A model generated the notes under the pieces. It worked only from the letters and a program-made list of their open reading frames with translations. It did no database searches and was not told where the DNA came from. The position numbers were made by a program, and so were the translations under genes. Positions 60-39,534 of a stretch of DNA of 39,573 nucleotides are shown piece after piece (position 1 is the stretch's first letter; the number at the start of each line of letters is the position of its first letter). Origin of the DNA: an uncultured Pseudomonadales bacterium (GTDB taxonomy: Bacteria > Patescibacteriota > Microgenomatia > UBA1400 > MFAQ01); contig CAZIPD010000002.1 of NCBI GenBank assembly GCA_964541175.1, positions 1-39,573 on the forward strand, in the 5' to 3' direction.

Positions 60-941
60 ATGGCCATCCAGCAGCACCCCCTACCACAGGACATCAGTAG
101 CTACCGCTTCCGCTTGATCGGTGACATGACCATCAAGCAATTTGGTATGCTTGCCGCAGGCATCATTCTGGCCATTCTCTTCTATTCCTCACCTCTACCC
201 TTCTTCTTCAAGTACCCCATTTCTTTCATTTTCCTCGTGCTTGGAATAGGCTCCGCCTTCGTTCCTGTCCAAGGCCGTCCTCTGGATCAATGGATCCTAG
301 CCTTCATCAAATCTATCTATGCTCCCACCCAATACACCTGGCGCCAGACCCCGCCGGAAGAAGCGGCTCAAACCGCACTCACTCAATCACCTCTTACTTC
401 TGCCCCCAAAGCCCCCTCCGTCAGCCCCTCTTCCACCGTCCCTGCCGCTGCTCCACTCCCGGTAGCCGTTCCTGAACCCATCACTCCCGCACCCGAAACC
501 CCACCTGAGCCTGAAATAGTCATCATTCCCGAACCTACACCACAGGAGGAACCGGAAACTCCCGCCGATCTACCCGACCTCGGTATTCCCACTCCCGCTC
601 CTGTCTCCCAGCCGGAGAATCCTTCTCAAGCTCCGGCTCCAACAACCAATCTTCCGATTCCGTTTACCCCCACCACTCCCAATACCCTGGTCGGTCTTAC
701 TCTTACCCCGGACGGAAAGATCTTGGAGAATGTCTTAGTAGAAATACTCTCCAATGGTCTGACCATAAGAGCCACCAAAAGTAACCGTCTCGGCCAATTC
801 ATGTTCGCCCGTCCTCTCGAAAAGGGCCTCTACCAGATCGCCGCCGAGAAAACCGGTTTTAACTTCTCCACTTACTCCATCGAATTAACAAACAAAATTG
901 TCTCTCCGCTCAAGATCCAAGCGGAATCGGGCACAGCATAA
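60..941 (+). CDS. PrgI/VirB3-like T4SS membrane protein fused to a Pro-rich linker and a C-terminal carboxypeptidase-regulatory-like beta domain
   Basis: ATG ORF of 293 aa. The N-terminal ~95 aa carry two TM helices and the PrgI-family pattern (PQDISSYRFRLIGDMTIKQF...GRPLDQWILAFIKSIY). It lies directly upstream of a VirB4-type ATPase. A ~110-aa Pro/Glu/Thr linker follows. The last ~75 aa (LVGLTLTPDGKILENVLVEI...GLYQIAAEKTGFNF) resemble a CarboxypepD_reg/Ig-like fold. Confidence 0.6.
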   Translation: MAIQQHPLPQDISSYRFRLIGDMTIKQFGMLAAGIILAILFYSSPLPFFFKYPISFIFLVLGIGSAFVPVQGRPLDQWILAFIKSIYAPTQYTWRQTPPEEAAQTALTQSPLTSAPKAPSVSPSSTVPAAAPLPVAVPEPITPAPETPPEPEIVIIPEPTPQEEPETPADLPDLGIPTPAPVSQPENPSQAPAPTTNLPIPFTPTTPNTLVGLTLTPDGKILENVLVEILSNGLTIRATKSNRLGQFMFARPLEKGLYQIAAEKTGFNFSTYSIELTNKIVSPLKIQAESGTA

Positions 942-944
942 CCA

Positions 945-1613
945 ATGGCCGACAACATCAGAGCTTCCACCCAGGAACATCTCGACATCTATACCATCAA
1001 GAACCATCTAGTCTTTCTCAAAGACGGTACGGTAGCTCTTGTCCTCAGGACCACTGCGATAAACTTCAATCTTCTCTCCGAAGAAGAACAAGACGCCACC
1101 ATCTATGCCTATGCCGGACTCCTTAACTCTCTTTCTTTCTCAGTTCAAATTCTCATCCGCTCTCAAAGAAAGAATATTTCCGATTACCTTGATCTTCTCG
1201 ACAACAGAATTCAGATCACCCCTTCACAAAAGATAAAGGAGCAACTCCTCGCCTACCGCCAGTTCGTCAAATCCCTGGTCAAAGAGAACCGTGTTCTTGA
1301 GAAAAAATTCTTCATCATTATTCCCTTCACCTCCCTCGAACTTGGAATTACCTCCGCTACTTTTAACCCCATCGCCAAAGCTCCCCAGAAACCTCCCTAC
1401 GATCTTGATTACATCGAAGAAAAAGCTGCCATGGCTCTGTATCCCAGAAGGGATCACTTAATAAGACAATTTGCCCGTATCGGTCTAAGGTCGCAACAAC
1501 TCACTACACCCGAACTGGTCAATCTCTTCTATTCCATCTATAACCCCTCCTCTGCCGCCACCGCTACTGCCGCCCAAACCAAGGCTATTGGCGGCATCTC
1601 TAACGATAAATAA
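945..1613 (+). CDS. hypothetical T4SS-associated protein, VirB4 N-terminal-domain-like, without a P-loop
   Basis: ATG ORF of 222 aa, 3 nt after the previous stop. It has no TM segment and no Walker motifs. Residues ~8-90 align by eye with residues ~50-130 of the adjacent VirB4. Confidence 0.55.
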   Translation: MADNIRASTQEHLDIYTIKNHLVFLKDGTVALVLRTTAINFNLLSEEEQDATIYAYAGLLNSLSFSVQILIRSQRKNISDYLDLLDNRIQITPSQKIKEQLLAYRQFVKSLVKENRVLEKKFFIIIPFTSLELGITSATFNPIAKAPQKPPYDLDYIEEKAAMALYPRRDHLIRQFARIGLRSQQLTTPELVNLFYSIYNPSSAATATAAQTKAIGGISNDK

Positions 1614-1638
1614 AGCCTCAATCCGTTATACTTAAACT

Positions 1639-3492
1639 ATGGCTTTTAATCTCTTTGGTCGCGCCCCTAAAGCCCCCGCCAATACACCCGTCGCTGCCAC
1701 TGCGGGTACTCCTGTCATGCCGACTCCTGCTCCAACCCCACCACCTCCCCCTCCCCCAAAAACAAAAACTACTCAAGGAAGCACCTCTGTCCAAGACATC
1801 ATCGCTCCCTCGGCCATAGAAATAGATTTTTCCAGTTTAAAAATAGATGACGTCTACCTCCGCACTCTCTTTGTCACCGGATATCCCCGCTATGTCTCGG
1901 CCAACTGGCTCTCTCCTTTGATTAACTTCAATCACTCTCTTGATATCGCTATGTATGTTTATCCCAGCGATTCCAAAGATACTCTTGATCAACTAAGACG
2001 CCGTATCGCCGAGATGGAAGCGGAGATCAATACCGATATTGAACGCGGGCGCATTCCCCAAGCCAGTACGGAAGCCGGTCTTGAAGACGCCAAATCCCTC
2101 CAGGAGCAACTGGTCAAAGGGGCTGAACGTTTCTTCCAGTTCTCTCTCTACATCACCGTTTCTGCCGACTCCATTAAAGAACTCAATACCATCACCTCAC
2201 AGATCCAGTCGATGCTTGCCTCTCTTCTCATCATCGGTAAGACCGCTTCTCTCTCCATGGAGGACGCCTTCAAAACCACCCTTCCCTACTGTAAAGATCG
2301 TTTGATGATCACCAGGAACATGGATACCACTGCTCTTTCCACTACTTTCCCCTTCACCTCCTCTGAACTCTCTGATAACCAAGGGATCCTTTACGGTATC
2401 AACTCTCATAATGACTCTCTCGTCATCTTTGATCGTTTCTCTCTGGAGAACGCCAATATGCTCGTTCTGGCCACCTCCGGTGCCGGTAAATCATACTGTG
2501 TCAAACTCGAGATTCTTCGTTCTCTGATGTTTGATACACAGATCATAGTTCTCGATCCCGAGAATGAATACGAAATGATCGCCAAAGCCGTTGGTGGCAA
2601 CTATCTCTCCTTCGCTTCCACCTCTGCCCATAAAATTAATCCTTTCCAAATTGCCAAGCCCCTTGAAAGTACCGAGGACGAGATGGGATATAAATATCTC
2701 TTCCTCATGTCCCTTCTAAAGATCATGATCGGGGAAATGTCACCCATGGAAGACGCCACTATGAACCGGGCCCTCGTTCTTACGTATCGGCAAAAAGGTA
2801 TCACCGAGGATCCTTCAACTCATGTCATTGAAGCCCCTCGCATGGAAGATCTCTACCGGGCCCTCATCGGCATGGAAGAACCCGTCAGTAAGATCCTCGC
2901 TGCCAGGCTGGAACGCTACGTCATGGGCTCGATCAAAGGCATCTTTGACCAGCAATCGAACATCGACATCAACGCTCCTGTTACCATCTTTTCCATGCGC
3001 GACCTTGCCGATGAGATCCGTCCCATCGTCATGTTCATGATCCTCGACTTCGTTTGGACTCAAGTAAGAAAAGATCTTCGGAAGCGCATGCTCATCGTCG
3101 ATGAGGCCTGGTATCTCATGCGCTATGAAGACTCTGCCAAGATTCTTCAAGGATTTGTTAAACGTGCACGCAAATACTTCCTCGGGGTCACCGTCATCTC
3201 CCAGAACGTCGATGATTTCCTTGGTTCACCCTATGGTAAAGCCATCATCACCAACTCCGCTCTCAAACTCCTACTCAAACAATCCTCTGCCGCCATCAAC
3301 CAAATATCAGAGGTCTTCTTCCTTTCGCAAGGAGAACGTCAACTCCTTCTCTCCGCCAATATAGGAGAAGGGATCTTCTTTGCCGGTCAAAATCATGTCG
3401 CTATGAAGATCATTTCCTCTCCCGATGAACACGCTCTCGCCACCAGTAAACCATCGGAAATTCTAGATCGTCAAAAAGCTGCCCCTGTCTAA
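1639..3492 (+). CDS. virB4: VirB4/PrgJ/TrsE-family type IV secretion ATPase
   Basis: 617 aa. Walker A is ATSGAGKS (2470-2493) and Walker B is MLIVDEAWYL. The C-terminal motif ARKYFLGVTVISQNVDDF is typical of VirB4/TraE. The N-terminus is Pro-rich. Confidence 0.85.
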   Translation: MAFNLFGRAPKAPANTPVAATAGTPVMPTPAPTPPPPPPPKTKTTQGSTSVQDIIAPSAIEIDFSSLKIDDVYLRTLFVTGYPRYVSANWLSPLINFNHSLDIAMYVYPSDSKDTLDQLRRRIAEMEAEINTDIERGRIPQASTEAGLEDAKSLQEQLVKGAERFFQFSLYITVSADSIKELNTITSQIQSMLASLLIIGKTASLSMEDAFKTTLPYCKDRLMITRNMDTTALSTTFPFTSSELSDNQGILYGINSHNDSLVIFDRFSLENANMLVLATSGAGKSYCVKLEILRSLMFDTQIIVLDPENEYEMIAKAVGGNYLSFASTSAHKINPFQIAKPLESTEDEMGYKYLFLMSLLKIMIGEMSPMEDATMNRALVLTYRQKGITEDPSTHVIEAPRMEDLYRALIGMEEPVSKILAARLERYVMGSIKGIFDQQSNIDINAPVTIFSMRDLADEIRPIVMFMILDFVWTQVRKDLRKRMLIVDEAWYLMRYEDSAKILQGFVKRARKYFLGVTVISQNVDDFLGSPYGKAIITNSALKLLLKQSSAAINQISEVFFLSQGERQLLLSANIGEGIFFAGQNHVAMKIISSPDEHALATSKPSEILDRQKAAPV

Positions 3493-3495
3493 AAC

Positions 3496-6400
3496 ATGGC
3501 CGAAAAATCCTCAATCGTCTACATTCTTCGACAAGCAATTGGGATCATCTCGGAACGTCCCATTCTTGATGATCTCTCCGACAAACGGAGACAACATGTT
3601 GCTGCCATCATTTCTCAGTTCGCCAACATTCCTTACATTAACTCGATTGCTGAAGAACTTCAGCTAAAAGGTATCGAGGCCATAATCAATCATTTTCCCC
3701 TCTCTTCTGCCCAAGACTGTCTCGATCTTTACGAGAGAGATGAACCCAAAAGCGAAACCAAGACCGCCCCTGAAGAAACACCTAATATTCCCCCTGAACT
3801 GGAAGCTCTGGTAGCTGAATACGAAGAACATCTGTCCGAAAAGAATGTCAATGACGGCAAGGTAAGCTCTGTCGCCGAGTCGGTCAAACGTGCCCGTGAG
3901 GCCATGATCATTCGCGAAAGACTCTCCGCCATTCGCAAAAATAGAGCGGCCCTTTCCTATAATCCTGAAGATTTTAATCAAGCAGAGGACAAACGTTATG
4001 AAGATCTAATAGTAAAAATAGTTAATCCCAAAGCCGGCTCTCATGAGGCTGTCATGGCTCCTCTTAACGAAGTTATTTCTCAAGCCGTCGACTCATATAT
4101 CAACACTTACCCGGATATTACCGAAGACCAGAAAAAACATCTCAAAGAGTTAGCCCCATCCGTTATCGACTCCACCCGCTACCTCGCCCTAACCGAAGCC
4201 ATAGACATCGAAAATCATCATGACCTTGTCACCGCCATCTCACTTTCCATCTTCAAAGCCGACGATCAATACACCACTTCCATCTCCGATATCTATGTCG
4301 AACTTGACAACAACGCCGCCAAACACGATCGTCTAAATCAGGATATAGCCAGAGAACAACTCAAGCTGTCAAGTCTAAAAACTGAAAGGTTCCAGGCTAA
4401 GGATAAGCCCGAGATGGTGGATCACTATGTAAGTCTGATATCCACCACGGAAGCCACCATTGCTCAAAAAATAAACCAAAGGGATACCATAGATATTGAC
4501 CTTACTCCTTTCACCTCCAAAGTCGAAGACTATCTCTCCTCCACCACCCAGACCGTAATCTCTGGAGTAAAAAAGCCCGATGGTTCTCAAAATTTGGACT
4601 TCGATACCCAATCTGCAGCAGCCAGAAAAGTTCTTGATGAAATTCACTCAAAGCTTTCCGCCGACAAAAATATTCAGCGTAGGATTCCTCCTCCCGAAGA
4701 CCCTCTTCGCCAAGCAGTCGATTTGGAAAAAAATATTCGTGCCGAATTACCTCAGCTGGGTCTGAATCCTCATGCCACCAACGAAGCTCAACAAGCGTCT
4801 ATCCTCATTTCTGACCCTAAAACTCAATCAAAAGACCTCTCCGGACAAACTATCCTTCTCTACAGTAAAGGCCTGACCACCGCCGAGTTTGACAAAGTCA
4901 TCTCCCATGCTTGGTCTCATCAAAATGACCCCAACTCCTCACTCGGCAAACTCTACAAAGCTCACCCTGAGCTTTTCGGTACCATCAGACAACAACTGGA
5001 AACCATCGAAAAAACCGACACTCCCGAGGCTCACATAGAAAGGGTGAGGACCTTCGCCAATGACCCTGACAATGCTCAATCCGCCCTCTCTCTCCTCTCC
5101 AAGAACAAAGCCGCCTATGAAGAATATTTGAACCTCTCAAAAAAACTTTCTTCGAAAGAGATTGTTAGTTGGGTAAAGGACAAAGCAAATCAACACACCT
5201 CACTCGCAAAATTTTACCAAGCCAACTCCCGCTTGTTCGGTAAGATCAACACGGAATTTGAAAAGGTCAAAAACTCGGCACTGGCAAGAGAAATCGGCAA
5301 ACCGATCGGAAGATTGACTCGTTCTCTCAACTCCATCAACAACAGAATAACTTCAAGACTTAATAAGATCTCAGGTTTCTTTTCCAGGAACCATTCGACA
5401 ATTAATACCATCCTCGACCCGTTTGGATCACTCAAAAGCTATTTTGGTCGCCAAGCCGGCCAATTCATTACCGGGCGTCTCGTCCCCAATCTGGCCTCAA
5501 GCTCCATCGGCAAACTCCTCACCAAAGAAGGTCTAAAAAACACCATCAAGGTCTTAGCCAAGAAAGCCGGCGCCAGGGCAGCTGCACTTGCTGCCAAGAT
5601 CGCTGTTAAAGCCGGTATTAGAGTCTCTGCTCAAGCTCTTGCCGTCGTCTCCGGTGTTGCCACTTTTGGCGTCGGTATCATCATCTACATCGGCGCAGAG
5701 ATCTTTATGCAAGGTATTAAGATTCTCAAGAAAGGTCTCGATTGGCTCTCTCAAGCCTTCTATGGTGAAGAGTTTAACTTCAAGACCGCTGCTCGGGACG
5801 CCGCCACAGGAGCAGCAGCTCTCTTTGGAGTAGGAGCAACTGCGTTTGTCGGTTTCGTAGCTGTTGCCGGAGCCATAGCTTCCTCCGCAGTAGCTTCTGC
5901 ACTTGGAATAATAATTGTTTCCTCTTTCATCGGATATTTCTTTTACATCACCTCAATCCTTGCCGGCCCTATCGTCTCCACTCTTGCCCAACTGGAAGCC
6001 GCCCCCAAAAGTGCCGTCTCCGGTTTTTGTTCTGGATCGACCATGAACAACGACAATCTCACCTGTAATGAGTACAACGGGATTACCTATTGCTTCCCGG
6101 TAAATGATATCTCCACCGTCTCCTATGTCACCGCTCATCATGACTATCCTGCCAATGACATCATGAGGGTCGGTGATAAACCGGGTCAGCCTGATGATAT
6201 TCCCCTTCCCCTCATTGCCTATGTCGACGGCACCGTCATCTGGACCTCGGAAACTGAAGGCCTGGGTGGTTACGCCTTCATCATCGCCGGTATCGACGGC
6301 ATGTTCTACTACTATGCTCACAATATGTGTAATTTTGTATCGATGGGTCAACTGGTAAAGGCAGGGGACATCCTTGGTGGGATGGACTCCTCGGGTAATG

Positions 6401-6564
6401 CCCAAAGTACCCCTGAACACGTTCATTTTCAGATCAGCGATCAGTCTGATATGACAACCGTTCCCGAAAATTACCCCCATTTTTACGCTCCTTGGGTGGA
6501 TTTTTGTGAGAAACTTAATCTGTGCGGACCTCTCAATATTGAAGTTTACCCGGAATTCCAATAA
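3496..6564 (+). CDS. large membrane protein with a C-terminal M23 (LytM-type) peptidoglycan endopeptidase domain; putative T4SS cell-wall hydrolase
   Basis: 1022 aa. The N-terminal ~680 aa are helical and charged. A block of several TM helices follows (AAALAAKIAVKAG...IIIVSSFIGYFFYITSILAGPIV). The C-terminal M23-like domain has HVH at 6418-6426 (EHVHFQI), YAHNM, and a variant first motif HHDYPANDI (6136-6159). Confidence 0.75.
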   Translation: MAEKSSIVYILRQAIGIISERPILDDLSDKRRQHVAAIISQFANIPYINSIAEELQLKGIEAIINHFPLSSAQDCLDLYERDEPKSETKTAPEETPNIPPELEALVAEYEEHLSEKNVNDGKVSSVAESVKRAREAMIIRERLSAIRKNRAALSYNPEDFNQAEDKRYEDLIVKIVNPKAGSHEAVMAPLNEVISQAVDSYINTYPDITEDQKKHLKELAPSVIDSTRYLALTEAIDIENHHDLVTAISLSIFKADDQYTTSISDIYVELDNNAAKHDRLNQDIAREQLKLSSLKTERFQAKDKPEMVDHYVSLISTTEATIAQKINQRDTIDIDLTPFTSKVEDYLSSTTQTVISGVKKPDGSQNLDFDTQSAAARKVLDEIHSKLSADKNIQRRIPPPEDPLRQAVDLEKNIRAELPQLGLNPHATNEAQQASILISDPKTQSKDLSGQTILLYSKGLTTAEFDKVISHAWSHQNDPNSSLGKLYKAHPELFGTIRQQLETIEKTDTPEAHIERVRTFANDPDNAQSALSLLSKNKAAYEEYLNLSKKLSSKEIVSWVKDKANQHTSLAKFYQANSRLFGKINTEFEKVKNSALAREIGKPIGRLTRSLNSINNRITSRLNKISGFFSRNHSTINTILDPFGSLKSYFGRQAGQFITGRLVPNLASSSIGKLLTKEGLKNTIKVLAKKAGARAAALAAKIAVKAGIRVSAQALAVVSGVATFGVGIIIYIGAEIFMQGIKILKKGLDWLSQAFYGEEFNFKTAARDAATGAAALFGVGATAFVGFVAVAGAIASSAVASALGIIIVSSFIGYFFYITSILAGPIVSTLAQLEAAPKSAVSGFCSGSTMNNDNLTCNEYNGITYCFPVNDISTVSYVTAHHDYPANDIMRVGDKPGQPDDIPLPLIAYVDGTVIWTSETEGLGGYAFIIAGIDGMFYYYAHNMCNFVSMGQLVKAGDILGGMDSSGNAQSTPEHVHFQISDQSDMTTVPENYPHFYAPWVDFCEKLNLCGPLNIEVYPEFQ

Positions 6565-6569
6565 ACAAT

Positions 6570-7658
6570 ATGGATAAAGTAAATCAAATCATCGCCAAGA
6601 TCCAAAAACACCGTCTCCTCCTGGGGGTGATAGCCGTCATCATTATCGGTTACCTTATCTCCCTCATCCCTCGACCGGGTACTCGCCCCTTCACCCCGAC
6701 CCAACCGATTCTTCCCCAAATCACTCCCACCCCTTTTAGTGCCCAAACCTACACCCAAACATTTTCCACCGAAAGATACATAAAGATCACTGATAATCAA
6801 CAGATAGTGGCCGTCAATCAAGAAAAACAACTTGTTCAATATCTTGGCGACACTCCCTTCCCCATCACTCCCGACGGACTCACTGTTGTCGACTATCAAA
6901 CCAGAGGTGGTAGCCTGGTCTACGAAGCCGGCACCTACGCCGATCCCGACAATGCCTTCTATCTTCTAAGTCTCACTAATAAATTCCAAGTTAAGCTCAA
7001 CACCACTCCCTACAAACCCATCATTAACTACAGTATTAATTCCACCGAGAGTAGCCTCGCCTTCTTGGGAAAATATGACGCCACAAAGAGTATCTCCACT
7101 CTTTATCTCTATGACCTGTCGACGAATATTACCACCCCCCTTGAAGAGAACATCACCGCCAATTCGGTTTCTTGGCTAAATGATAACTACCTTTTGATCA
7201 GTAATAAAATAGACGTCAATATCGGACCTAACAACTTCATCAATATCTTTTCCTTATCCACCAAAGAATTCATCGTCAAAAATATTCCGGCCTTGGACAG
7301 ATCGGTCACCTTCAGTGACACAAACGGACTTCTTTATTTTGTAAATTCCAAGAACAATATCCTCACCTCGCTCAATCTATCATCCGCGACCTTCACGGAC
7401 GTTCTTAAGCTAACCACACTACCCACAGATATGTTCTTCAACCGGTCCAACAACTCTCTGGTACTCCTGATTGCCGACGATAGCGGACTTCTTGTCAGGG
7501 TCGTCGATCCCAACCAAAAGAAGGTGATCAAAGATGTCTCTCTTCAGTTGGATAAGGATGAGATATATATCGAACACTTTCAATCGGGAAGTTCTCACTT
7601 CATCAAGACCTACAATCGAAATTTTAAACATTACGTCGTCAAATATCTTCCCCTCTAA
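6570..7658 (+). CDS. N-terminally TM-anchored beta-propeller-like (TolB-like repeat) protein
   Basis: 362 aa. One N-terminal TM helix (LLLGVIAVIIIGYLISLI) is followed by repeated beta-strand blade-like segments (SLVYEAG..., SLAFLGKYD...LYLYDL, SVSWLNDNYLLIS, LLYFVNSKNN, SLVLLIADDSG). It is the last gene of the T4SS-like operon. Confidence 0.45.
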   Translation: MDKVNQIIAKIQKHRLLLGVIAVIIIGYLISLIPRPGTRPFTPTQPILPQITPTPFSAQTYTQTFSTERYIKITDNQQIVAVNQEKQLVQYLGDTPFPITPDGLTVVDYQTRGGSLVYEAGTYADPDNAFYLLSLTNKFQVKLNTTPYKPIINYSINSTESSLAFLGKYDATKSISTLYLYDLSTNITTPLEENITANSVSWLNDNYLLISNKIDVNIGPNNFINIFSLSTKEFIVKNIPALDRSVTFSDTNGLLYFVNSKNNILTSLNLSSATFTDVLKLTTLPTDMFFNRSNNSLVLLIADDSGLLVRVVDPNQKKVIKDVSLQLDKDEIYIEHFQSGSSHFIKTYNRNFKHYVVKYLPL

Positions 7659-11256: not shown

Positions 11257-11394
11257 ATGCCAAAAAGAGTCTACCAACCTAAAAAAATGAAACGCGTCCG
11301 TACTCATGGATTCAGAATTAAGATGTCCACCGCCGCTGGCCGTAACGTTATCGCTCGCCGCCGCGCCAAAGGTCGCGCCAAACTGACCGTTTAA
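11257..11394 (+). CDS. rpmH: 50S ribosomal protein L34
   Basis: This ORF is below the ORF-track size cut-off. My own translation is [45 protein letters not shown] (45 aa), the canonical L34 sequence, immediately upstream of rnpA. Confidence 0.92.
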
Positions 11395-11399
11395 TAACT

Positions 11400-11970: not shown

Positions 11971-11972
11971 CT

Positions 11973-12716: not shown

Positions 12717-12718
12717 AC

Positions 12719-24969: not shown

Positions 24970-25797
24970 ATGAGCAATCTTGACAGGGCAGTCAAAAAAA
25001 CTCTTGCCTATTCATCCTTCTTCAACTTTCCTCTATATCCCGAAGAAGTTCATCACTGGTTGATAACCGGCAACCCGATCCCGTCTGAAGCGGTCTGTGC
25101 TCACTATCATCAGGTTCTACCTCTGTCCTCCGTCGAGAAGAGAAAGGAACATCTCCGGATCTCCAACCAAAAAATGGAGAGAGCTAAAAAAATCTCCTCC
25201 CTCCTTTCTCGAATTCCTACCATCGAACTGGTCGCTGTCACTGGTTCGGTTGCGGTTGGCGCCGCCAAAGAGCTGGATGACGTGGATCTTCTTATTATTA
25301 CCTCAGACAACACTCTTTGGTTTACCCGGCCCTTAGTGCTCACCCTCCTCTCGCTATTCTCCCGTCGCAGATTACCCGGTCAAAGTTATGACAGCGCCGC
25401 TCACACATTTTGCCCTAATCTCTGGTTGGAAAAGCGCTCATTGTCTGTTCCTGGGGCAAAGCGCAATCTTTACACCGCTCACGAAGTACTCTTTGTCTCT
25501 CCTGTCTTTGATCGCTCAAGAACTCACTCTCAATTCCTCCAAAATAACTCATGGGTCAGAAAACATCTGGCTAATGCCTATGATATGGCCATTGCTAACC
25601 ATCTGGAGGTTCCAAAGAGAAACAACTCTCTTCTTTCCTCCTTTCTCTATCCGTTCAATCTTGTTAGCTTCGTTATCCAATATCTATATATGAGACCAAA
25701 AATTACCACCGAGGAGATCAGACTTACTCACGCTTATTTCCACACCCAGGACTTTGCCCAAAAGATTCAAAAACACTTAATCCATAATTTGAGTTAA
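24970..25797 (+). CDS. hypothetical protein with a minimal nucleotidyltransferase (Pol-beta-like) motif
   Basis: 275 aa. VTGSVAVGAAKELDDVDLLIIT fits the GS-x(9-11)-DxD NTase signature. Confidence 0.4.
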   Translation: MSNLDRAVKKTLAYSSFFNFPLYPEEVHHWLITGNPIPSEAVCAHYHQVLPLSSVEKRKEHLRISNQKMERAKKISSLLSRIPTIELVAVTGSVAVGAAKELDDVDLLIITSDNTLWFTRPLVLTLLSLFSRRRLPGQSYDSAAHTFCPNLWLEKRSLSVPGAKRNLYTAHEVLFVSPVFDRSRTHSQFLQNNSWVRKHLANAYDMAIANHLEVPKRNNSLLSSFLYPFNLVSFVIQYLYMRPKITTEEIRLTHAYFHTQDFAQKIQKHLIHNLS

Positions 25798-25805
25798 GAT
25801 TTCTA

Positions 25806-26621
25806 TTGAGTATGCAATTTTTCGAGACCTTCATCTACCAACCCTTCTTTAATATTCTGGTCGGTCTCTATTGGCTGATCGGGCAGTTCATGCCCGAACC
25901 GGATATGGGTATCGCCGTTATTCTTTTTTCGGTAGCGGTTAGACTCATTCTTCTACCCATAGACCTCGCAGGATCACGATCGGATAAAGAGAAATTCGAC
26001 ATTGCTCTCAGAGTCCACAAACTCAAAAAAGATTATGACGATGATCCAATCAAACAAGCTGAAGAATCGAAAAAGATCATGCGTCAAAGTCCGGGTGCCA
26101 TTGTCTCCGAGATCGTCAACATCATCATCCAATTCGTCATCATCATCATGCTCTACCGTATCTTTAAGACCGGTCTTGAAGGAGCTGACTTCCATCTGCT
26201 TTATGACTTCATGCCTCACATCCCCCAGCCGATCAACCTGATGTTTTTGGGGAAATACGATCTCTCACAGACAAACAATACTCTCAATCTTATCCAATCA
26301 CTGATGATCGCCATCAACGAGATATTCCATCTCTACTTTTCCCCCGTCAAGCCAACGAGAAAAGACTTCATCTCCCTCGTTATAATCTTCCCGGTCTTCT
26401 GTTTCCTTGTCTTTATCTTCCTCCCCGCAGGCAAAAAGGTTTTCATTATCACTTCCCTGGCCTTCTCCATAACCAAAAAACTCATTGAACAAACCCTCTT
26501 TCTCTATTACTCTCTTACTCACAGGGCTGCCGGAGCCACTCTCGAAGCAACCCCCTCGGTCCCTGCTTCGCCCTCGGAAGCTCCTCCCCAACCCCCACCT
26601 CCACCGGCTCCCGGAGTATAA
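25806..26621 (+). CDS. second YidC/Oxa1-family insertase paralog with a Pro-rich C-terminal tail
   Basis: 271 aa (TTG start at 25806, or ATG at 25812). The TM1 motif GIAVILFSVAVRLILLPI carries the conserved Arg. Five predicted TM helices are present. The tail is PSEAPPQPPPPPAPGV. Confidence 0.55.
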   Translation: MSMQFFETFIYQPFFNILVGLYWLIGQFMPEPDMGIAVILFSVAVRLILLPIDLAGSRSDKEKFDIALRVHKLKKDYDDDPIKQAEESKKIMRQSPGAIVSEIVNIIIQFVIIIMLYRIFKTGLEGADFHLLYDFMPHIPQPINLMFLGKYDLSQTNNTLNLIQSLMIAINEIFHLYFSPVKPTRKDFISLVIIFPVFCFLVFIFLPAGKKVFIITSLAFSITKKLIEQTLFLYYSLTHRAAGATLEATPSVPASPSEAPPQPPPPPAPGV

Positions 26622-26633: not shown

Positions 26634-27260
26634 ATGGCTGATTTTGATAAACTCGTAGTTTCATTCCTCGTCGACGAAGTAGTCGGAGGTTTCTTTATCT
26701 CCGTTCCTCCTGGACACGTAGCCTGCGTTTACGATAGAGGGCTTGGAGTTCTCAAGCGAGTTTGGGGACCGGGACTCCACCTCAAAATTCCCTTCTGGCA
26801 GATAGCAAAACTTTTCAACGGTCAGATCCTCGAATATACGATAAGGCACGGTTTTGACCTCAGCCAAAGAGAGTCCCTCGGAGATGAACCCATTGTCGTT
26901 TCCACCAAGGACAACAAGGTCGTCTCCATCGAAGGCTCGATCCTCTTTAAGATCGACAAAGCCAACGCCCCCGAGCTCTGGGAGCAAATAGGCGATAACT
27001 TCGTTTCCAAAGTCGTTCGTCCATACTCCCGAAGTCGTGTTTCCAGTATTGTCAGCCAATATAACGCCAAAGATATCGGTGCCCAACGTACCCAGATCGA
27101 AAAACTTATTAAAGAAGAACTCAATAAACTCTTCTCTGATAAAGCGATCGTCGTCGAGAACGTCCTCTTCTCCGAGGTAAAGGAAAGCCGTGGCGAAGCT
27201 CCTACAGAAAGCCACCCTGTCCTATCCGGCAACCCAACGAGCATTACCCCTCAAGGTTGA
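26634..27260 (+). CDS. SPFH/Band 7 (prohibitin/HflK-C-like) domain protein
   Basis: 208 aa with VPPGHVACVYDRGLGVLKRVWGPGLHLKIPFWQ...VVSTKDNKVVSIEGSILFKI. Confidence 0.8.
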   Translation: MADFDKLVVSFLVDEVVGGFFISVPPGHVACVYDRGLGVLKRVWGPGLHLKIPFWQIAKLFNGQILEYTIRHGFDLSQRESLGDEPIVVSTKDNKVVSIEGSILFKIDKANAPELWEQIGDNFVSKVVRPYSRSRVSSIVSQYNAKDIGAQRTQIEKLIKEELNKLFSDKAIVVENVLFSEVKESRGEAPTESHPVLSGNPTSITPQG

Positions 27261-27279: not shown

Positions 27280-30200
27280 ATGGCCTCGCCCAAGTATTCC
27301 GTCCTGCAGGTAAAACCTGCCAAAGACTCCCTCATTGGGCAATCCACTTTTGTCCAATTTCTCAGTTCGCTTAAATCTTCTCTTAGGGCAAATATGCTCG
27401 ACCGCCTTCTTGGTACCTATGACACCATCTGTCTGGAGATTATCAACCTCAACCAAACAACCTTTTTTGTCATTGCTTGTCCGGAGAGAATGGAGCACCT
27501 GGTCCGCTCACAAATAGCTGCTCAATACCCCAATGCCCTGATTAATCCCATGGAGGACTATTTACCCCAGTGGCTGACACACGGTCAACCCCAAGCGGCT
27601 AGGCTTGTCCTCACGGCCCCTTCATATCTTCCGATCAATGCTACCGACGATGCGGCTGTAGATCAACTTTCATCGGTCCTCGGAGGACTTTCCCGTCTTC
27701 TCCCGGGTCAAGCTGCCATTATCCAGATCTGCTTATTTGCCGCCCCCAAGAACTGGCAAAGAGCTATTCGTGGATTTCTCGACGCAGGTGTCGGCAATGA
27801 GCCTGAAAAATTCAAGGCTCACCCTCAAAAAACCCACATCGAAACAAAACTGGCATATCAGGCTTACTCCGCCGATATTCGTTTAGTGGCCATTACACCT
27901 AGCGAAGATCAATCAAAGAACCTTCTCCACCAACTGGCAGCCGCCTATGGCACCTATTCTTCCTCCGAAGGTAATAGTTTTTCCCTCAAGACCCCCAAGG
28001 CGCACAACCAACAGAAGTTGATAGACTCCATCATTAACCGTTCCGCCAAGTATGCTACCCAGAGCCAATATTTAAATTACTTTGAAATATCCGCCCTTTT
28101 TCATCTTCCCAATGCCAATCTGGCAACCATAAAAAATATCGCTTGGGGAAAAACTCTCAAAGGAGAGCCTCCCGCCAACCTTTTCGTCGAGGAAGGACTG
28201 ACCGAGGAAGAGAAGAAAGACATCAACTTCTTTGCCAAGACCGAGTTCAAGAATCAACTGGTGAGTTTTGGCATGAAGAAAGGGGACGACCGCCGTCGAC
28301 ATGTCTACGTCTTGGGTAAATCCGGTACCGGTAAATCCACGCTTCTGGCTAACATGTGTATCAATGATATCCGTCATGGAGAGGGAGTTGCACTGGTCGA
28401 TCCTCATGGTGATACTGCCGAGAGGATCCTTGACTATATTCCCCGAGAACGTATCAACGACGTTGCCTATCTCGACCCTTCGGTTGCCGGGAAATCATTC
28501 CACATGAATCCGCTCTTCGTCAAAAATCCGGCCTACAGCGAACTTGTCGCCTCGGGTATCGTCTCGATTTTCAGCAAACTCTACGGTAACTCTTGGGGAC
28601 CTCGTCTCGAATATATTTTAAGGAATACTCTCCTCACCCTTGTTTCCAAACCGGGATCGACACTCCTCGACGTCCCAAGACTTCTGACCAGTAAACCGTT
28701 CCGTGAGGATTACCTGACCAGTGTCAAAGATGCCGTTCTCATTAACTTCTGGCACGATGAATATGACAAATACTCCGAAAAATTTCAGTCGGAAGCCATC
28801 TCTCCTATTCTTAACAAAGTCGGTCAGTTTATAACCTCTCCGACAATCAGGGATATCATTTCTCATCCCGACTCAACGGCCGACTTCGAAGACCTGATGA
28901 ATCAAGGCAAGATCATCATTCTCAATCTCCCTCAAGGCAAGATCGGTGAAGACAACGCCGCTCTTCTTGGAGCCATGTTCATCTCCCAGATCCAGATAGC
29001 CGCCATGAACAGGGCCAATATTCCGGAGGAACAACGCAAAGACTTCTTCCTCTACGTTGATGAGTTCCAGAACTTCGCCACGACTTCATTTATCAAAATT
29101 CTCTCCGAGGCCAGAAAATACAGACTTAACCTGATTCTTGCTAATCAATACACTGCCCAACTACCGGAAGAGATCCAAAAAGCCATTTTTGGCAACGCCG
29201 GTACTTTAATTAGCTTCGTCGTCGGCGCCGATGATGCCAACCGTCTCATGAGCGAGCTTGGAAGCTTCTACACCCAGGACGACCTCGTCTCCCTTCCACG
29301 CTACCAAACGATAATCAAGCTCTCGGTCAACTCCACCATCTCCATGCCTTTCCCGGCTCACACTCTACCCGTGCCACCGGTCACCGACACCTTCCGCCAA
29401 CAAGTCATCGAATCCAGTGAATCCCGATATTACCGCCCCATCGTCGAGCAGCCCATGCCCGTTCTTCCTCCGTATAAAGAGGAACCTCGTCGTGAAGAAA
29501 GACGCTACCAGGATCAACGCCCTCAACGCCAATACGATTCTCGACCACAACAATCCCAACCCCCTCAACGCCAATACGATTCCCGACCACAACAGCCTCA
29601 ACCTCCTCGAGAATATAATCCTCCTCGCCCTTTGGAGCCGCGACCCCAATATCAACAATCCCAACCTCCAAGACAATCTCCATCTCCTCAAACTGCTCAA
29701 AACACGCCTCAATCACCGACTCCTCACCTTTCACCGGGGCCAACACCCAAAGAACCAACGATTGAAGAACTGGACGCTCTCCGTCGACAGGGGCTCCGAC
29801 CAAGTGTGGTCGGTTGTTTTGTAAACGAAAAACACCTCCTCCTCGTCTATCAGAAAATTCACAATATGTGGACTCTTCCTCAAGGGGGGATTGATAATCA
29901 AGAAACCCTCGAAGTTGCCTTTCAAAGAGAACTCTCTGATGAGGTTACCGAAGACTTCGTTAAGAACACCAAAAAAGCTGAACTCATCGCCGAAGATAAG
30001 ATCGAGTTTCCTCCCGGGAAGCAAGGGCTTCGCGACATGAAGTTGGACTCGGGTGACCCCGTGACGATGAAGGGAAAATATTATTACTTCTTGGTCTCCC
30101 AAGCCAATACCCGTGACATTGTGGTCTCGGCAACGGAATTTGACGACTACAAGTGGCTAAAATATGAAGAAGCGTATAAACTTATTAAAGAGTCCAATAC

Positions 30201-30522
30201 CGGAGGTAAGCTTCGCATCCTGACGATGATACTTAATAAACTCAGAGACAAAGGTTTATTAGCTCAAGATCAGATTCCTCCGACCAGGACAAATTATCAA
30301 GAACGACCCAGATACCATGGATCCAAACCCTACCAATCCCAACCCCCAAGACACCAACCCAACCCCTCCTATTCAATCGCAACCCCTTCCCCCGCTAAAG
30401 CTACCGAGAATACTTCCACAACAGGAAACAACCTCACAACAGGAAGTGCCCCCTCAGTCACCTTGGGAGACACCTCAGTCCCAGTCGGGAACAAACCTCC
30501 CTCCGCTACCTCCTCAGACTGA
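27280..30522 (+). CDS. soluble VirD4/TraD-like (FtsK-HerA superfamily) coupling-type ATPase fused to a C-terminal NUDIX hydrolase domain
   Basis: I chose the start at ATG 27280 (MASPKYSVLQ), which lies after the SPFH stop. Walker A is GKSGTGKST (28315-28341), followed by DPHGD. Walker B is FFLYVDEFQNF. The motif ARKYRLNLILANQYTAQL...AIFGNAGTLISFVVGADDA is typical of TraD-like DNA-binding ATPases. No N-terminal TM helix is present. A Pro/Gln repeat linker follows. The Nudix box is GGIDNQETLEVAFQRELSDEVTE (29884-29952). Confidence 0.75.
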   Translation: MASPKYSVLQVKPAKDSLIGQSTFVQFLSSLKSSLRANMLDRLLGTYDTICLEIINLNQTTFFVIACPERMEHLVRSQIAAQYPNALINPMEDYLPQWLTHGQPQAARLVLTAPSYLPINATDDAAVDQLSSVLGGLSRLLPGQAAIIQICLFAAPKNWQRAIRGFLDAGVGNEPEKFKAHPQKTHIETKLAYQAYSADIRLVAITPSEDQSKNLLHQLAAAYGTYSSSEGNSFSLKTPKAHNQQKLIDSIINRSAKYATQSQYLNYFEISALFHLPNANLATIKNIAWGKTLKGEPPANLFVEEGLTEEEKKDINFFAKTEFKNQLVSFGMKKGDDRRRHVYVLGKSGTGKSTLLANMCINDIRHGEGVALVDPHGDTAERILDYIPRERINDVAYLDPSVAGKSFHMNPLFVKNPAYSELVASGIVSIFSKLYGNSWGPRLEYILRNTLLTLVSKPGSTLLDVPRLLTSKPFREDYLTSVKDAVLINFWHDEYDKYSEKFQSEAISPILNKVGQFITSPTIRDIISHPDSTADFEDLMNQGKIIILNLPQGKIGEDNAALLGAMFISQIQIAAMNRANIPEEQRKDFFLYVDEFQNFATTSFIKILSEARKYRLNLILANQYTAQLPEEIQKAIFGNAGTLISFVVGADDANRLMSELGSFYTQDDLVSLPRYQTIIKLSVNSTISMPFPAHTLPVPPVTDTFRQQVIESSESRYYRPIVEQPMPVLPPYKEEPRREERRYQDQRPQRQYDSRPQQSQPPQRQYDSRPQQPQPPREYNPPRPLEPRPQYQQSQPPRQSPSPQTAQNTPQSPTPHLSPGPTPKEPTIEELDALRRQGLRPSVVGCFVNEKHLLLVYQKIHNMWTLPQGGIDNQETLEVAFQRELSDEVTEDFVKNTKKAELIAEDKIEFPPGKQGLRDMKLDSGDPVTMKGKYYYFLVSQANTRDIVVSATEFDDYKWLKYEEAYKLIKESNTGGKLRILTMILNKLRDKGLLAQDQIPPTRTNYQERPRYHGSKPYQSQPPRHQPNPSYSIATPSPAKATENTSTTGNNLTTGSAPSVTLGDTSVPVGNKPPSATSSD
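29521..29604 (+). repeat. 42-bp tandem duplication (2 copies) encoding PQRQYDSRPQQ(S/P)QP
   Basis: 29521-29562 and 29563-29604 differ at only about 5 positions. The duplication lies in the linker between the ATPase and NUDIX domains. Confidence 0.85.
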
Positions 30523-31507
30523 TATTATCTCTGCTCCAGCCGACGAATTGATCACTCAAGAAGAAGCCCCTTACAATGAAGCTCCCACAGTAGAAAGAGA
30601 ACCTTTCAGCCCACATCCGTCAGACGACATTCCCTTTTCACCTGAACCAACTTCTTTTGAATCCACGACCTTCGAACCCGCGCCTTTCAGTCCTCCTTCC
30701 CCGGAACCAACATCTTCATTGGAGCTGGAAACAACCATCACGTCCAAGAACGGATCTGGTAGTCCAAGGATTCTCCTAACCGGTCTCTCTCTCATATTGG
30801 TTGGTACGCTGGTCGGTGTTTTAGCGGCCAACTTCCTCCCCCCGATCGGTCTTCCTGGTCAAACCACTCCAACCCCTACGGTCGAGATTACACCGACCGC
30901 CCCTCTGACGCAGTCGGTTACCAGTCTTGAATACAGCTTCTCCGTTGAAATGCCCGTGAGCTGGATCCAATCGGGGAACACGGCAGAATTTCCCTACCTC
31001 TTCCAGTATCAGGCAACTGACAACAGCACCTTTGAAATATTGGTTAGGGATCTACCAAAGGGGACATCAATCACCCAATATCTTGCCCAACAAGACAAAG
31101 TTTCTGCGACAGCTTTCGAAGGGAAACCAAGCAAAAAAGTCATCAGTACTCAAGAAATCGTCGTTAATGGCGTTACCGGGGTAGAGAGGGAAGAGGAGTT
31201 CCTGGCAGCCGGTCTTATCGGTCGTGTCATATATCTTCCGGGAAAGACCAAGGTCTACTCACTCAGTTTCATCCCCGGCACCGACACTGCTCCGATAATG
31301 ACCTCTCAGATATATCAAGATAGACAAACGATAATCGATTCTTTCAGGATCACCGGCAGTGAATCTTCTGCCGCCTACACCTGCCCCCCGGGAGAATGGG
31401 TTGACTGTATGCCGGGGCCGGGTGGAGCTCCCCGTCCGGAATGCGAGACCATATATCTTGACTGGGCTAAAGCTAACTGTCCCGGTTTCAAAGGCGCCGC
31501 TCTGTAA
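30317..31507 (+). CDS. single-pass membrane protein with a Pro-rich N-terminal region and an extracytoplasmic alpha/beta domain ending in a Cys-rich tail
   Basis: 396-aa ORF. The TM helix is ILLTGLSLILVGTLVGVLAANFL. The C-terminus is CPPGEWVDCMPGPGGAPRPECETIYLDWAKANCPGF. The start is uncertain because ATG 30317 overlaps the upstream gene by 205 nt; an in-frame TTG at 30548 is an alternative. Confidence 0.55.
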   Translation: MDPNPTNPNPQDTNPTPPIQSQPLPPLKLPRILPQQETTSQQEVPPQSPWETPQSQSGTNLPPLPPQTDIISAPADELITQEEAPYNEAPTVEREPFSPHPSDDIPFSPEPTSFESTTFEPAPFSPPSPEPTSSLELETTITSKNGSGSPRILLTGLSLILVGTLVGVLAANFLPPIGLPGQTTPTPTVEITPTAPLTQSVTSLEYSFSVEMPVSWIQSGNTAEFPYLFQYQATDNSTFEILVRDLPKGTSITQYLAQQDKVSATAFEGKPSKKVISTQEIVVNGVTGVEREEEFLAAGLIGRVIYLPGKTKVYSLSFIPGTDTAPIMTSQIYQDRQTIIDSFRITGSESSAAYTCPPGEWVDCMPGPGGAPRPECETIYLDWAKANCPGFKGAAL

Positions 31508-38486: not shown

Positions 38487-38526
38487 CTCTCGGAAAAAAT
38501 ATCCGTTGAACTGAACGATGTTTGTG

Positions 38527-38598
38527 AGGCCGGTGCCGGAGTCGAACCGGCGCATGGCGGTTTTGCAGACCGCAGCGTTACCCCTTCGCCAACCGGCC
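38527..38598 (-). tRNA. tRNA-Cys (anticodon GCA)
   Basis: I folded the cloverleaf by hand. Acceptor stem is GGCCGGU/ACCGGCC. The D arm is GCGA...(A)CGC with an A13-A22 mismatch. The anticodon stem GCGGU/ACCGC closes the loop CUGCAAA. The variable loop is CAUGC. The T arm is GCCGG-UUCGACU-CCGGC. The discriminator is U73. No CCA is encoded. Confidence 0.9.
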
Positions 38599-38643
38599 GA
38601 AATCTTTCATATTTTAGCATCTATCTGGTACACTAAGCTTAAT

Positions 38644-39534
38644 ATGAAATCGAGACTAATTAGTTTCCTGAGCCTGCTTCTTTTTTCTGTCTTTCTCTCA
38701 GGTTGTAGCCTCAATATCTTCTCTCGCCGTTCGGGAACTCAAATTACCTCCAATCCCCAAGCCGAGATCACCATCAATGGTGAAAGCTACGGTAAAACTC
38801 CTTACGTCAACGAAAATTTAAAAGCCGGAGAATACACGATCAGACTCACACCCATAGATCAGGAACTTCAACCATGGGAGATTAAGACAGTCTTCTCCCC
38901 GGGCTATCAAATCATTGTCGATAGACAGTTTGGCAAGACCCAAGACCAATCCAGCAATCATACCCTCTCCTTCGAGAAGCTCAACGACAAAAAGTCTACT
39001 GAAGTTAGCATCATCAGTAATCCCTCAAATATTTCGGTCGCCGTAGATAAAGTCCCTAAAGGTTTTACCAATCGCCCCATCGAAAATATAGAGGTCGGAG
39101 AACATACCTTTGATTTCTCCGCTCCTGGATACCAAGACAAACGGGTCCAGGGCCGTGTATTTGCCGGTCAGCGCCTGGTCATCAATGTCACTCTGGCAAC
39201 GGCCCCGGTCGTTCCCACTCCTACGCCCTCACCTCTTGCTACTCCCTCAGCTACCCCTTCCCCGTCAAAGGGAGCCTCTACGATCACTCCTCTTCCCAAA
39301 CAGGCCACGATCTCCGCCCTCCTTGTGAAACCATATGTGGAAATAGTCTCCCCGGTTATGACCTGGGCTAGAGTTAGAGCTGAAGCGAGTATCTCATCGG
39401 ATGAGCTGGCAAAGGTGAACCACGGAGACTCCTTTAACTACAAAGATATGGAAACCGCCGGTTGGTACTACATAGAATACCTCAAGGACAAATGGGGCTA
39501 TGTTTCAAGTCAGTACGCCAAGCTCGTCAAATAA
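38644..39534 (+). CDS. lipoprotein with two PEGA-like domains, a Pro/Thr/Ser linker and a C-terminal bacterial SH3 domain
   Basis: 296 aa from ATG 38644. The signal peptide and lipobox are MKSRLISFLSLLLFSVFLSGC. PEGA-like segments are ITINGESYGKTPYVNENLKAGEYTIRL and ISVAVDKVPKGFTNRPIENIEVGEHTF. The SH3-like segment is ARVRAEASISSDELAKVNHGDSF...GWYYIEY...WGYVSSQY. Confidence 0.7.
   Translation: MKSRLISFLSLLLFSVFLSGCSLNIFSRRSGTQITSNPQAEITINGESYGKTPYVNENLKAGEYTIRLTPIDQELQPWEIKTVFSPGYQIIVDRQFGKTQDQSSNHTLSFEKLNDKKSTEVSIISNPSNISVAVDKVPKGFTNRPIENIEVGEHTFDFSAPGYQDKRVQGRVFAGQRLVINVTLATAPVVPTPTPSPLATPSATPSPSKGASTITPLPKQATISALLVKPYVEIVSPVMTWARVRAEASISSDELAKVNHGDSFNYKDMETAGWYYIEYLKDKWGYVSSQYAKLVK

Follow-up and report, generated by a model that had tools for sequence, protein, structure and literature searches.

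A coupling protein-like ATPase joined to an RppH/NudH-like Nudix domain at a chromosomal locus of Microgenomates

RESULTS

Reading frame and domain architecture

We analyzed a contig of 39,573 nucleotides (hereafter the window; CAZIPD010000002.1 of assembly GCA_964541175.1, read on the forward strand), which is deposited as DNA of an uncultured Pseudomonadales bacterium and placed by GTDB in the Patescibacteriota (Microgenomatia; UBA1400; MFAQ01). Our subject is one gene of this window, in which an ATPase resembling type IV coupling proteins (T4CPs) is joined to a Nudix hydrolase domain. The gene is a single uninterrupted open reading frame (ORF) on the + strand that starts at 27190 (GTG) or 27280 (ATG) and ends at 30522; all positions within it given below are on this strand. 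The ATG form (27280..30522) comprises 1080 amino acids and a stop codon, contains zero internal stops, and is identical over its full length to the public NCBI protein P0001. It consists of an N-terminal DUF8128 domain, the T4CP-like ATPase, a low-complexity linker, the Nudix domain, and a C-terminal tail, and no stop codon was found between the ATPase and Nudix domains. No transmembrane (TM) helix was predicted, the highest 19-residue Kyte-Doolittle mean over the whole 1080-residue protein being 1.42. These features bear out an earlier note on this DNA, which had described a T4CP-like ATPase that lacks TM anchors, is joined in frame to a Nudix domain, and has low-complexity linkers: every motif that it quoted was found in frame, at the coordinates given below.

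ATPase core and DUF8128 domain

The ATPase (28207..29424, residues 310 to 715) was identified by Pfam, by sequence matches in the Protein Data Bank (PDB), and by Foldseek as a TrwB/VirD4-type P-loop ATPase composed of a nucleotide-binding domain and an inserted all-helical domain. Three Pfam profiles exceeded their gathering cut-offs, namely, DUF87 (29.7 bits; cut-off 23.2), TraG-D_C (26.3 bits; cut-off 22), and TrwB_AAD_bind (21.6 bits; cut-off 20.5), and the top PDB sequence matches were TrwB and DotL. In frame within this region lie the Walker A motif GKSGTGKST (28315..28341, residues 346 to 354), whose Gly and Lys are invariant or nearly so across the family, a DPHGD motif (28399..28413), the Walker B region LYVDEFQNF (29050..29076), and a conserved C-terminal ATPase motif, AIFGNAGTLISFVVGADDA (AIFGNAGT...; 29182..29238). 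The Walker B region is conserved in the family alignments, where Y590, D592, E593, and F597 (numbering of the reference row P0121) are invariant. The region of the C-terminal motif has the family consensus AVFGNVGTxIxFRVGAxDA, in which the Asn and Asp are invariant.

An AlphaFold2 model of the core (residues 1 to 715) was obtained with a predicted local distance difference test score (pLDDT) of 92.9. Between Walker A and Walker B, DSSP assigned to this model a predicted helical bundle (28528..28899, residues ~417 to 540; helices H417-434, 441-455, 464-470, 472-479, 485-497, 500-518, and 521-527), which is the position of the all-alpha domain in T4CPs. In Foldseek alignments, residues 310 to 715 superposed on TrwB-deltaN70 over 400 to 424 columns with a target-normalized TM-score of 0.60 to 0.64, covering nearly its whole soluble part, and on Cag-beta with a target-normalized TM-score of 0.51 to 0.57. 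With the whole core as the query, VirB4/TrwK and HerA ranked above TrwB; VirB4 came first over ~830 columns, with a poor superposition (TM-score ~0.3). This whole-model search hints at a resemblance of DUF8128 to a VirB4-type N-domain, as a weak lead. DUF8128 as a VirB4 N-terminal domain was rejected on a direct comparison, since hhalign against the VirB4 of the window gave a probability of 0.3%.

Scores for curated T4CP families fell well below their cut-offs (TIGR03743, 36.1 bits versus 366; NF045973, 35.8 versus 250), and no match to Pfam T4SS-DNA_transf (PF02534) was reported for the window protein, while 23 of 53 distant relatives match this profile. Its fold places the ATPase among the P-loop nucleic-acid motors of the FtsK/HerA/T4CP class. 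We file the protein as T4CP-like, within the DUF8128 family, because it lacks the TM domain, the linkage to a relaxase or type IV secretion system (T4SS), and the curated family scores of a T4CP; by homology, it would act as a hexameric translocase. The best PADLOC match of the ATPase (28231-29322, residues 318 to 681) was mad8 of the MADS defense system (E=1.5e-18, 65 bits), accompanied by weak HerA matches, and this similarity suggests that mad8 belongs to the same T4CP-like ATPase branch.

The N-terminal 309 residues (27280..28206) form the DUF8128 domain and contain no TM helix. P0001 and nearly all of its 120 best matches carry a precomputed PF26449 annotation, and the domain could be aligned across 72 distant representatives. 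Its AlphaFold2 model is confident, with alternating strands and helices, and a profile search of the PDB found zero sequence relatives at E<=10. The family of DUF8128-ATPases comprises 6,174 representatives at E<=1e-30. An N-terminal TM helix before DUF8128 was detected in 37 of the 72 distant representatives and in 0 of 118 close relatives. The TM-bearing proteins (including P0140, P0158, P0137, and P0146) are ~35-45% identical and have a single helix with Kyte-Doolittle means of 1.8 to 3.1. These results indicate that anchor loss is specific to the Microgenomates clade around the window protein. The missing anchor of the earlier note thus stands insofar as no TM helix is present, but the N terminus holds a 300-residue domain, DUF8128, that is preceded by such a helix in about half of the distant family members. 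In some other ATPases (P0193, P0208, P0212, P0226, P0235, and others), the ATPase begins at residue ~5 without DUF8128 and is followed by C-terminal extensions of 300 to 520 residues. In one ATPase gene without DUF8128 (L088, 201-2996), the start is closely preceded by a stop codon, so that the short N terminus cannot be a contig-end artefact.

Linker and Nudix domain

The ATPase is followed by a low-complexity linker rich in Pro, Gln, Arg, and Tyr (29425..29760, residues 716 to 827). Residues 700 to 835 consist of 23% Pro, 17% Gln, and 13% Arg, the linker proper being ~110 residues long, and a 42-bp tandem repeat lies inside it (29515-29608). Behind the Nudix domain, the protein ends in a Pro/Ser/Thr-rich tail (30241..30519, residues 988 to 1080). 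Pro-rich tails or heads were observed at 26500-26621, 27200-27260, 29425-29760, and 30241-30700, that is, on a YidC paralog (YidC2), an SPFH protein, the linker and tail of the ATPase, and the downstream protein.

The Nudix domain (29761..30240, residues 828 to 987) was assigned to the RppH/NudH/Ap4A (diadenosine tetraphosphate)-hydrolase subfamily from Pfam, AlphaFold2, Foldseek, and profile matches. Pfam NUDIX (PF00293) matched residues 840 to 969 with E=1.8e-11 and 44.6 bits (gathering cut-off 21.1). The AlphaFold2 model (pLDDT 93.8; predicted TM-score 0.88) showed the alpha/beta/alpha Nudix fold, and Foldseek returned 514 PDB matches at E<=0.001, of which all those listed are Nudix enzymes, led by NudI and E. 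coli RppH (TM-score ~0.7). The Nudix segment proposed in the earlier note was thus recovered both by profile and by structure prediction. A profile of the Nudix family matched lupin Ap4A hydrolase (1F3Y; 1.5e-9) and RppH (1.5e-8) in near full-length alignments. The N-terminal G-x-R-P-x-V-G motif (RPxVG) and the WxxPQGG start of the Nudix box align with both enzymes. The nearest resemblance in NCBIfam was to RppH equivalogs, the best of which (NF001936) scored 40.4 bits versus a cut-off of 118. Because these equivalog scores lie far under the curated cut-offs, we call the domain RppH/NudH-like rather than an RppH, and its substrate cannot be read from the sequence. Some Nudix enzymes are recognized by residues downstream of the box (Tyr for Ap4A, Pro for ADP-ribose); compared by eye, none of these rules fits the domain cleanly, and no substrate call was made.

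The Nudix box of the window protein, GGIDNQETLEVAFQRELSDEVTE (29884..29952, residues 869 to 891), reads G-x5-E-x7-R-E-L-S-D-E-V-T-E; Asp replaces the first Glu of the "EE" pair, and Thr the box Gly. Among 101 homologs, the first two Gly are retained in 99, the Glu of "RE" in 96, the first "EE" Glu in 79, and the second in 93. The first "EE" position is Asp in six of the 101, the window copy included, and the box-Gly position is Thr in 60 and Gly in 39. These counts show selection on the Nudix box among the 101 homologs. Both the fused copies and the free-standing copies described below have a highly conserved insert, IEFPPxKQGLRDxKxDxG..MKGKxYYF, and, at the C terminus, a highly conserved GGKLRI helix; the FPP of the insert can be aligned with lupin Ap4A hydrolase as well. 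The insert and the helix are candidate substrate-binding elements.

Conservation of the fusion and of the C-terminal site

Relatives of the protein were sought among 5.8 billion clustered proteins, and 5,262 were returned. The Nudix segment is present in 101 of the 120 best protein clusters (48 to 100% identity), and the fused clusters originate in NCBI, JGI, ENA, and Logan assemblies. Complete fused ORFs of 940 to 1220 residues were found in at least 27 species-representative genomes of Collierbacteria/Woesebacteria-type Microgenomates. The Nudix domain starts between residues 773 and 911 in the fused orthologs, and the length of the linker varies accordingly. In databases, the fused proteins are named "NUDIX domain-containing protein," "MutT," or, as with KKS32840.1 from a Collierbacteria genome, "hypothetical protein." A mis-assembly, frameshift, or lost stop codon was excluded by the presence of the same ORF in >100 clusters of independent assemblies, and the fusion is conserved across assemblies together with its Nudix box. 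The doubt raised in the earlier note, that a lost stop or a chimera had joined two genes, is thereby settled in favor of the fusion. Many public genome records that carry this Patescibacteria gene (L007, L008, L011, L035, L085, and others) are labeled "uncultured Pseudomonadales," "Gammaproteobacteria," "Spirochaetia," "Planctomycetota," or "Bathyarchaeia." These off-lineage labels of metagenome-assembled genomes probably reflect mislabeled or contaminated bins.

We then compared what follows the ATPase in positional orthologs. Two of them (P0110 and P0113) end directly after the ATPase, two (P0106/L006 and P0112/L004) have only a low-complexity tail, and five (P0115, P0116, P0118, P0119, and P0121/L089) have an S1 domain at the C-terminal site. 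The best PDB matches of the S1 tail were ribosomal protein bS1, Rrp5, and PNPase, and by these matches the tail is a canonical RNA-binding S1 domain. Of 53 more distant representatives whose tails are long, 14 have a treble-clef zinc finger (zf_Tbcl_2) and three have S1. Only the top-scoring of 150 listed 50%-identity representatives (P0090, 68% identical to the query) is known to have this Nudix domain, and a family-specific Nudix hidden Markov model gave no match in the other 149. These results indicate that the C-terminal position of DUF8128-ATPases is modular.

Free-standing Nudix relatives

To place the Nudix domain among its relatives, we scanned 185,579 species genomes with the family Nudix alignment; 237 genomes matched, and the best 80 loci were classified. 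Those of Collierbacteria/Woesebacteria type are fused, and the other 46 are free-standing ORFs of 171 to 240 residues (typically ~172) with 34 to 50% identity. Their hosts are Buchanan-, Magasanik-, Uhr-, Morani-, Berkel-, and Kerfeldbacteria, Parcubacteria, and others, and their source names include "RNA pyrophosphohydrolase" and "putative (di)nucleoside polyphosphate hydrolase." A tblastn search of the 46 genomes found no ATPase homolog within +/-4.5 kb of the free-standing Nudix genes, and no conserved neighbor family was found around them. An origin of the fusion from neighboring genes was rejected, since the free-standing genes are unlinked to the ATPase and have no conserved neighbor. 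A small Nudix gene located 3 kb from a distant ortholog in L087 was also set aside, as it is of a different subtype and its similarity is confined to the Nudix box.

In a neighbor-joining tree rooted on E. coli RppH, 28 fused Nudix domains formed one clade with no free-standing member inside. Because the fused domains are monophyletic in this tree, their distribution fits a single event of capture and fusion. On the evidence of the tree and the locus survey, the Nudix domain is a captured Patescibacteria housekeeping enzyme, and the fusion is lineage-specific. The earlier note had held that orthologs encoding the two domains as separate genes would speak against the fusion. Within the clade the fusion stands, but in other Patescibacteria the Nudix gene is free-standing and unlinked; as the separate genes occur outside the clade, they mark the fusion as a lineage-specific capture and do not refute it. 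The window protein is thus very probably a genuine, lineage-specific fusion of two Patescibacteria-wide proteins.

Genomic neighborhood

The ATPase-Nudix gene lies in a co-directional block with gaps of 4 to 19 nt, which encodes, in order, a solute-binding protein, a Pol-beta-type nucleotidyltransferase, YidC2, an SPFH/Band_7 protein, ATPase-Nudix, a single-TM Cys-rich protein, GroES, and GroEL. The same gene order was found at orthologs of 56 to 65% identity (loci including L004, L006, L089, and the P0116 locus). Within this block, a 275-residue protein (24970..25797) has a weak Pol-beta/NTP_transf_2 nucleotidyltransferase signature. YidC2 (25806..26621, + strand) is a second, divergent YidC/60KD_IMP paralog (63.7 bits) with three hydrophobic segments and a Pro-rich tail, and it keeps its upstream position in L004, L006, and L089 and at the P0116 locus. 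The SPFH/Band_7 protein (26634..27260, + strand) has one hydrophobic N-terminal segment and ends 19 nt before the ATPase start; its adjacency to the ATPase is kept in every syntenic ortholog examined.

Downstream of ATPase-Nudix lies the gene for a single-TM protein with a conserved Cys-rich C terminus, YTCP..WVDCMP..C...W.K.NCP.F.GAAL (30548..31507, + strand, start uncertain). Taken at its longest, the ORF starts at 30317 and shares 205 nt with the ATPase gene, and the true start is probably later than 30317. The protein is 33% identical to the product of the same-position gene in L001 (9266-9985), which stands beside a fused ortholog, and the gene is absent beside the orthologs without a Nudix or S1 tail in L004 and L006. 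A promoter and terminator scan of 23.3-32.1 kb gave counts no better than those of shuffled sequences, and the sole good promoter-like site was before GroES. Because the scan was uninformative, an operon structure is inferred from the 4- to 19-nt gaps.

A T4SS cluster of Patescibacteria/monoderm type (60..7658, + strand) is located ~24 kb, or ~20 coding sequences, upstream of ATPase-Nudix. It contains a PrgI/VirB3-like gene (60-941, +), a gene of unknown function (945-1613), a VirB4-like ATPase gene with P-loop_TraG and AAA_10 matches (1639-3492), a gene for a 1022-residue protein with a C-terminal M23 peptidase domain (3496-6564), and a second gene of unknown function (6570-7658). No relaxase was found in the window. 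A conjugative-element context for ATPase-Nudix was rejected on its synteny with housekeeping genes and the lack of a relaxase in the window, and the gene is a chromosomal core locus rather than part of a conjugative or mobile element. The earlier note had read the protein as a coupling protein. The T4CP-like fold supports this reading, but the gene is not in a conjugative element and is instead an orphan chromosomal gene between YidC2/SPFH and GroES/EL. A census of Patescibacteria T4SSs counted 5,713 VirD4-like homologs in 2,918 genomes, of which 148 were near virB4 (PMC12102498), and ATPase-Nudix belongs to the orphan VirD4-like population of this census.

Beside the T4SS cluster are dnaN (7671-8780, - strand) and dnaA (9132-10508, - strand). 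Gene-poor stretches follow dnaN and dnaA (7671-11972), and the region is likely the replication origin. The GC skew of the + strand is -0.2 to -0.4 from position 1 to ~31 kb, with no sign change at dnaN/dnaA. The canonical YidC gene (11973-13174, 171 bits) is followed by a gene for a Jag/KhpB-like protein with KH and R3H domains, so that the gene at 25806-26621 is the second YidC paralog of the window. At the far end, a tRNA-Cys (GCA) gene (38526-38598, - strand) overlaps the start of the longest ORF of a PEGA/SH3 protein (38518-39534), whose true start must be downstream.

DISCUSSION

Comparison with known systems

The T4CPs TrwB of R388, VirD4, TraD, Cag-beta, and DotL resemble the window protein in having a Walker A/B domain with an inserted helical domain. 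TrwB_AAD_bind and TraG-D_C scores above the gathering cut-offs and a variable C-terminal extension are further points of likeness. In TraD and DotL, the C-terminal extension recruits the substrate or adaptors, as in the interaction of TraD with TraM, from which the TraG-D_C name originates. The window protein differs in that it has no TM domain and carries 300 residues of DUF8128 at the N terminus instead, in that its gene has no linkage to a relaxase or T4SS, in that its curated T4CP scores are far too low, and in that its C terminus is an enzyme. TraJ of pIP501 is a Gram-positive T4CP without a TM domain, for which anchoring by the small membrane protein TraI has been proposed (PMC12857230). 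Compared by description, TraJ is alike in being an ATPase of the coupling type whose attachment to the membrane would depend on a partner, but it is plasmid-borne, lies in a tra operon with a relaxase, and has neither DUF8128 nor a Nudix domain.

E. coli RppH/NudH and lupin 1F3Y share with the Nudix family studied here the fold, RPxVG, WxxPQGG, and the RE..EE metal ligands. RppH/NudH and the plant-type Ap4A hydrolases differ from the window domain, which is 20-22% identical to them and has an insert of its own, the GGKLRI helix, and a fusion to a motor. Actinomycete integrative and conjugative elements (AICEs) often carry Nudix genes beside FtsK-like translocases, and the Nudix protein Pif gives conjugal immunity (PMC3218068). 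Pif and the translocase TraSA, again compared by description, are similar in that a Nudix hydrolase is functionally tied to a DNA-translocating P-loop motor of the same superfamily; they are encoded by separate genes on a mobile element, and both the translocase branch (FtsK-like) and the Nudix subtype differ. In HerA-NurA, a hexameric motor of the HerA/FtsK class is coupled to an end-acting enzyme, and HerA was among our top structural matches; here, the nuclease partner is a separate subunit, the substrate is a double-stranded DNA end, and HerA lacks the all-alpha domain. In concept, Pif with TraSA and pairs of motor and end-processing enzyme of the HerA-NurA type come closest to the fusion.

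We found no paper on DUF8128, on Patescibacteria together with DUF87, or on a Nudix-T4CP fusion, and a genetics paper on S. epibionticum mentions neither VirD4 nor Nudix. The description of the architecture as new in the earlier note therefore holds for the searchable literature, but the proteins themselves are already in public databases under generic names.

Proposed mechanism

By analogy with T4CPs, the C terminus may be an exchangeable module that engages the substrate on the cytoplasmic face through which it enters a hexameric motor. RNA or another single-stranded nucleic acid with a 5' end would be the most likely substrate of this motor, because S1 and RppH-type Nudix domains are both RNA-directed. 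Six tethered Nudix domains would convert 5'-triphosphate, 5'-diphosphate, or Np4-capped ends to monophosphate at the motor, and the resulting 5'-monophosphate end would serve threading or decay. Alternatively, the tethered domains might hydrolyze Ap4A-type dinucleoside polyphosphates at the motor. Membrane association, if any, would occur through partners, namely, the co-directionally encoded YidC2 or SPFH protein or the T4SS of the genome. In Firmicutes, RNase Y is scaffolded by SPFH proteins of the flotillin type, and a hub of RNA decay close to the membrane would agree with this. A coupling of end processing to translocation, as proposed in the earlier note, is plausible. We put forward the RNA-end-processing mechanism tentatively, as possible rather than probable; taken jointly with the identity of the fusion, the explanation seems to us about equally apt to hold or to fail.

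Several points weigh against this mechanism. The RppH equivalog scores are far below their cut-offs, and in Foldseek, RppH shares its rank with NudI, which is a nucleoside triphosphatase. In the Nudix box of the window copy, Asp and Thr replace the first "EE" Glu and the box Gly, respectively. The OB-fold (oligonucleotide/oligosaccharide-binding fold) of S1 domains and zinc fingers are also able to bind single-stranded DNA. The long disordered linker fits a loose tether with no mechanistic coupling, and Pro-rich extensions look like a genome-wide habit, which weakens an RNA-specific reading of the linker. The free-standing Nudix genes are unlinked to the ATPase and thus give no independent support by association. 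The hexamer and its central channel are assumed from homology.

Alternative explanations

The ATPase-Nudix protein might instead be a working coupling protein for the T4SS of the same genome (60-7658). DUF8128 would be its docking site for VirB4/VirB3 or for a small protein of the membrane, and the Nudix domain would prepare or regulate a secreted or imported substrate, for instance, nucleotides or nucleic acid that the bacterium and its host cell exchange. Genes for VirB3/PrgI-like, VirB4-like, and M23-hydrolase proteins do lie ~20 coding sequences upstream in the same window, TrwB and Cag-beta are nearest to the ATPase in fold, and the whole-core Foldseek search, which puts VirB4 first over ~830 columns, hints at an N-domain like that of VirB4. 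Distant family members are TM-anchored as T4CPs are, and an anchoring partner of a T4CP has a precedent (PMC12857230). Both the docking and the proposed role of the Nudix domain nevertheless appear unlikely to us, since every ortholog examined is syntenic with housekeeping genes and not with a T4SS, the window contains no relaxase, the comparison of DUF8128 with the VirB4 of the window gave an hhalign probability of 0.3%, and the TM-scores of the whole core to VirB4 are only ~0.3. [quoted passage not shown] A similarly low probability is given to a fusion of convenience, in which a housekeeping NudH/RppH gene came to lie behind a highly conserved gene and fused to it, the two activities being co-expressed or co-localized but uncoupled. 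Such an uncoupled fusion would agree with a linker that is long, variable in length, and repeat-expanding, with the Pro-rich tails common on other proteins here (YidC2, SPFH, and the downstream gene), with the lack of linkage between free-standing Nudix genes and the ATPase, and with the many close orthologs that are tailless. It accords less well with the retention of the fusion, its catalytic residues intact, in a clade whose members have become as little as 48% identical, and the independent gain of S1 and zinc-finger modules at the same C-terminal site elsewhere argues for a functional theme.

A device for conjugal immunity or defense against mobile elements, like Pif of pSAM2 or of HerA/MADS type, which senses or degrades an incoming nucleic acid or nucleotide signal, is much less probable still. 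The pairing of Nudix proteins with FtsK-like translocases in AICEs and the conjugal immunity given by Pif are precedents for it (PMC3218068), and PADLOC matched the ATPase to mad8 (E=1.5e-18) and weakly to HerA. However, the locus is a stable housekeeping syntenic block rather than a variable island, PADLOC finds no other MADS or defense components nearby, the mad8 match is limited to the shared ATPase fold, and the Nudix subtype is that of the general NudH/RppH-like enzyme of the lineage. There is a negligible probability that two genes were joined by faulty assembly, by a sequencing frameshift, or by the loss of a stop codon: the low-complexity repeat of the linker is a sequence type prone to assembler error, but >100 clusters and 27 full-length loci differ in linker sequence and length, and the fused Nudix domains are monophyletic.

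Significance

Patescibacteria have on average about two VirD4-like genes per genome, almost none of which are near a T4SS or relaxase and whose role the census of T4SSs acknowledges as a question still open (PMC12102498). The Nudix fusion, together with the S1 and zinc-finger tails in relatives, provides the first concrete testable substrate hypothesis for these orphans, namely, RNA or the 5' ends of nucleic acids. At its widest, this hypothesis would make the orphan VirD4-like ATPases of Patescibacteria RNA-handling motors, acting as RNA translocases or in a membrane-proximal hub for RNA decay or exchange; we regard this extension as speculative and improbable on present evidence. It is just as doubtful whether such a hub feeds the essential T4SS, with lineages marking the substrate by an S1 domain, a zinc finger, or an RppH-type enzyme. 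Should the RNA hypothesis fail, a clean example of clade-specific domain capture on a core gene would remain. If it is true, the coupling-protein fold would gain a function outside conjugation and secretion, a motor would be linked to RNA metabolism in ultra-small symbiotic bacteria, and the Nudix fusion would be a Rosetta-stone clue to a new cellular role of the T4CP fold.

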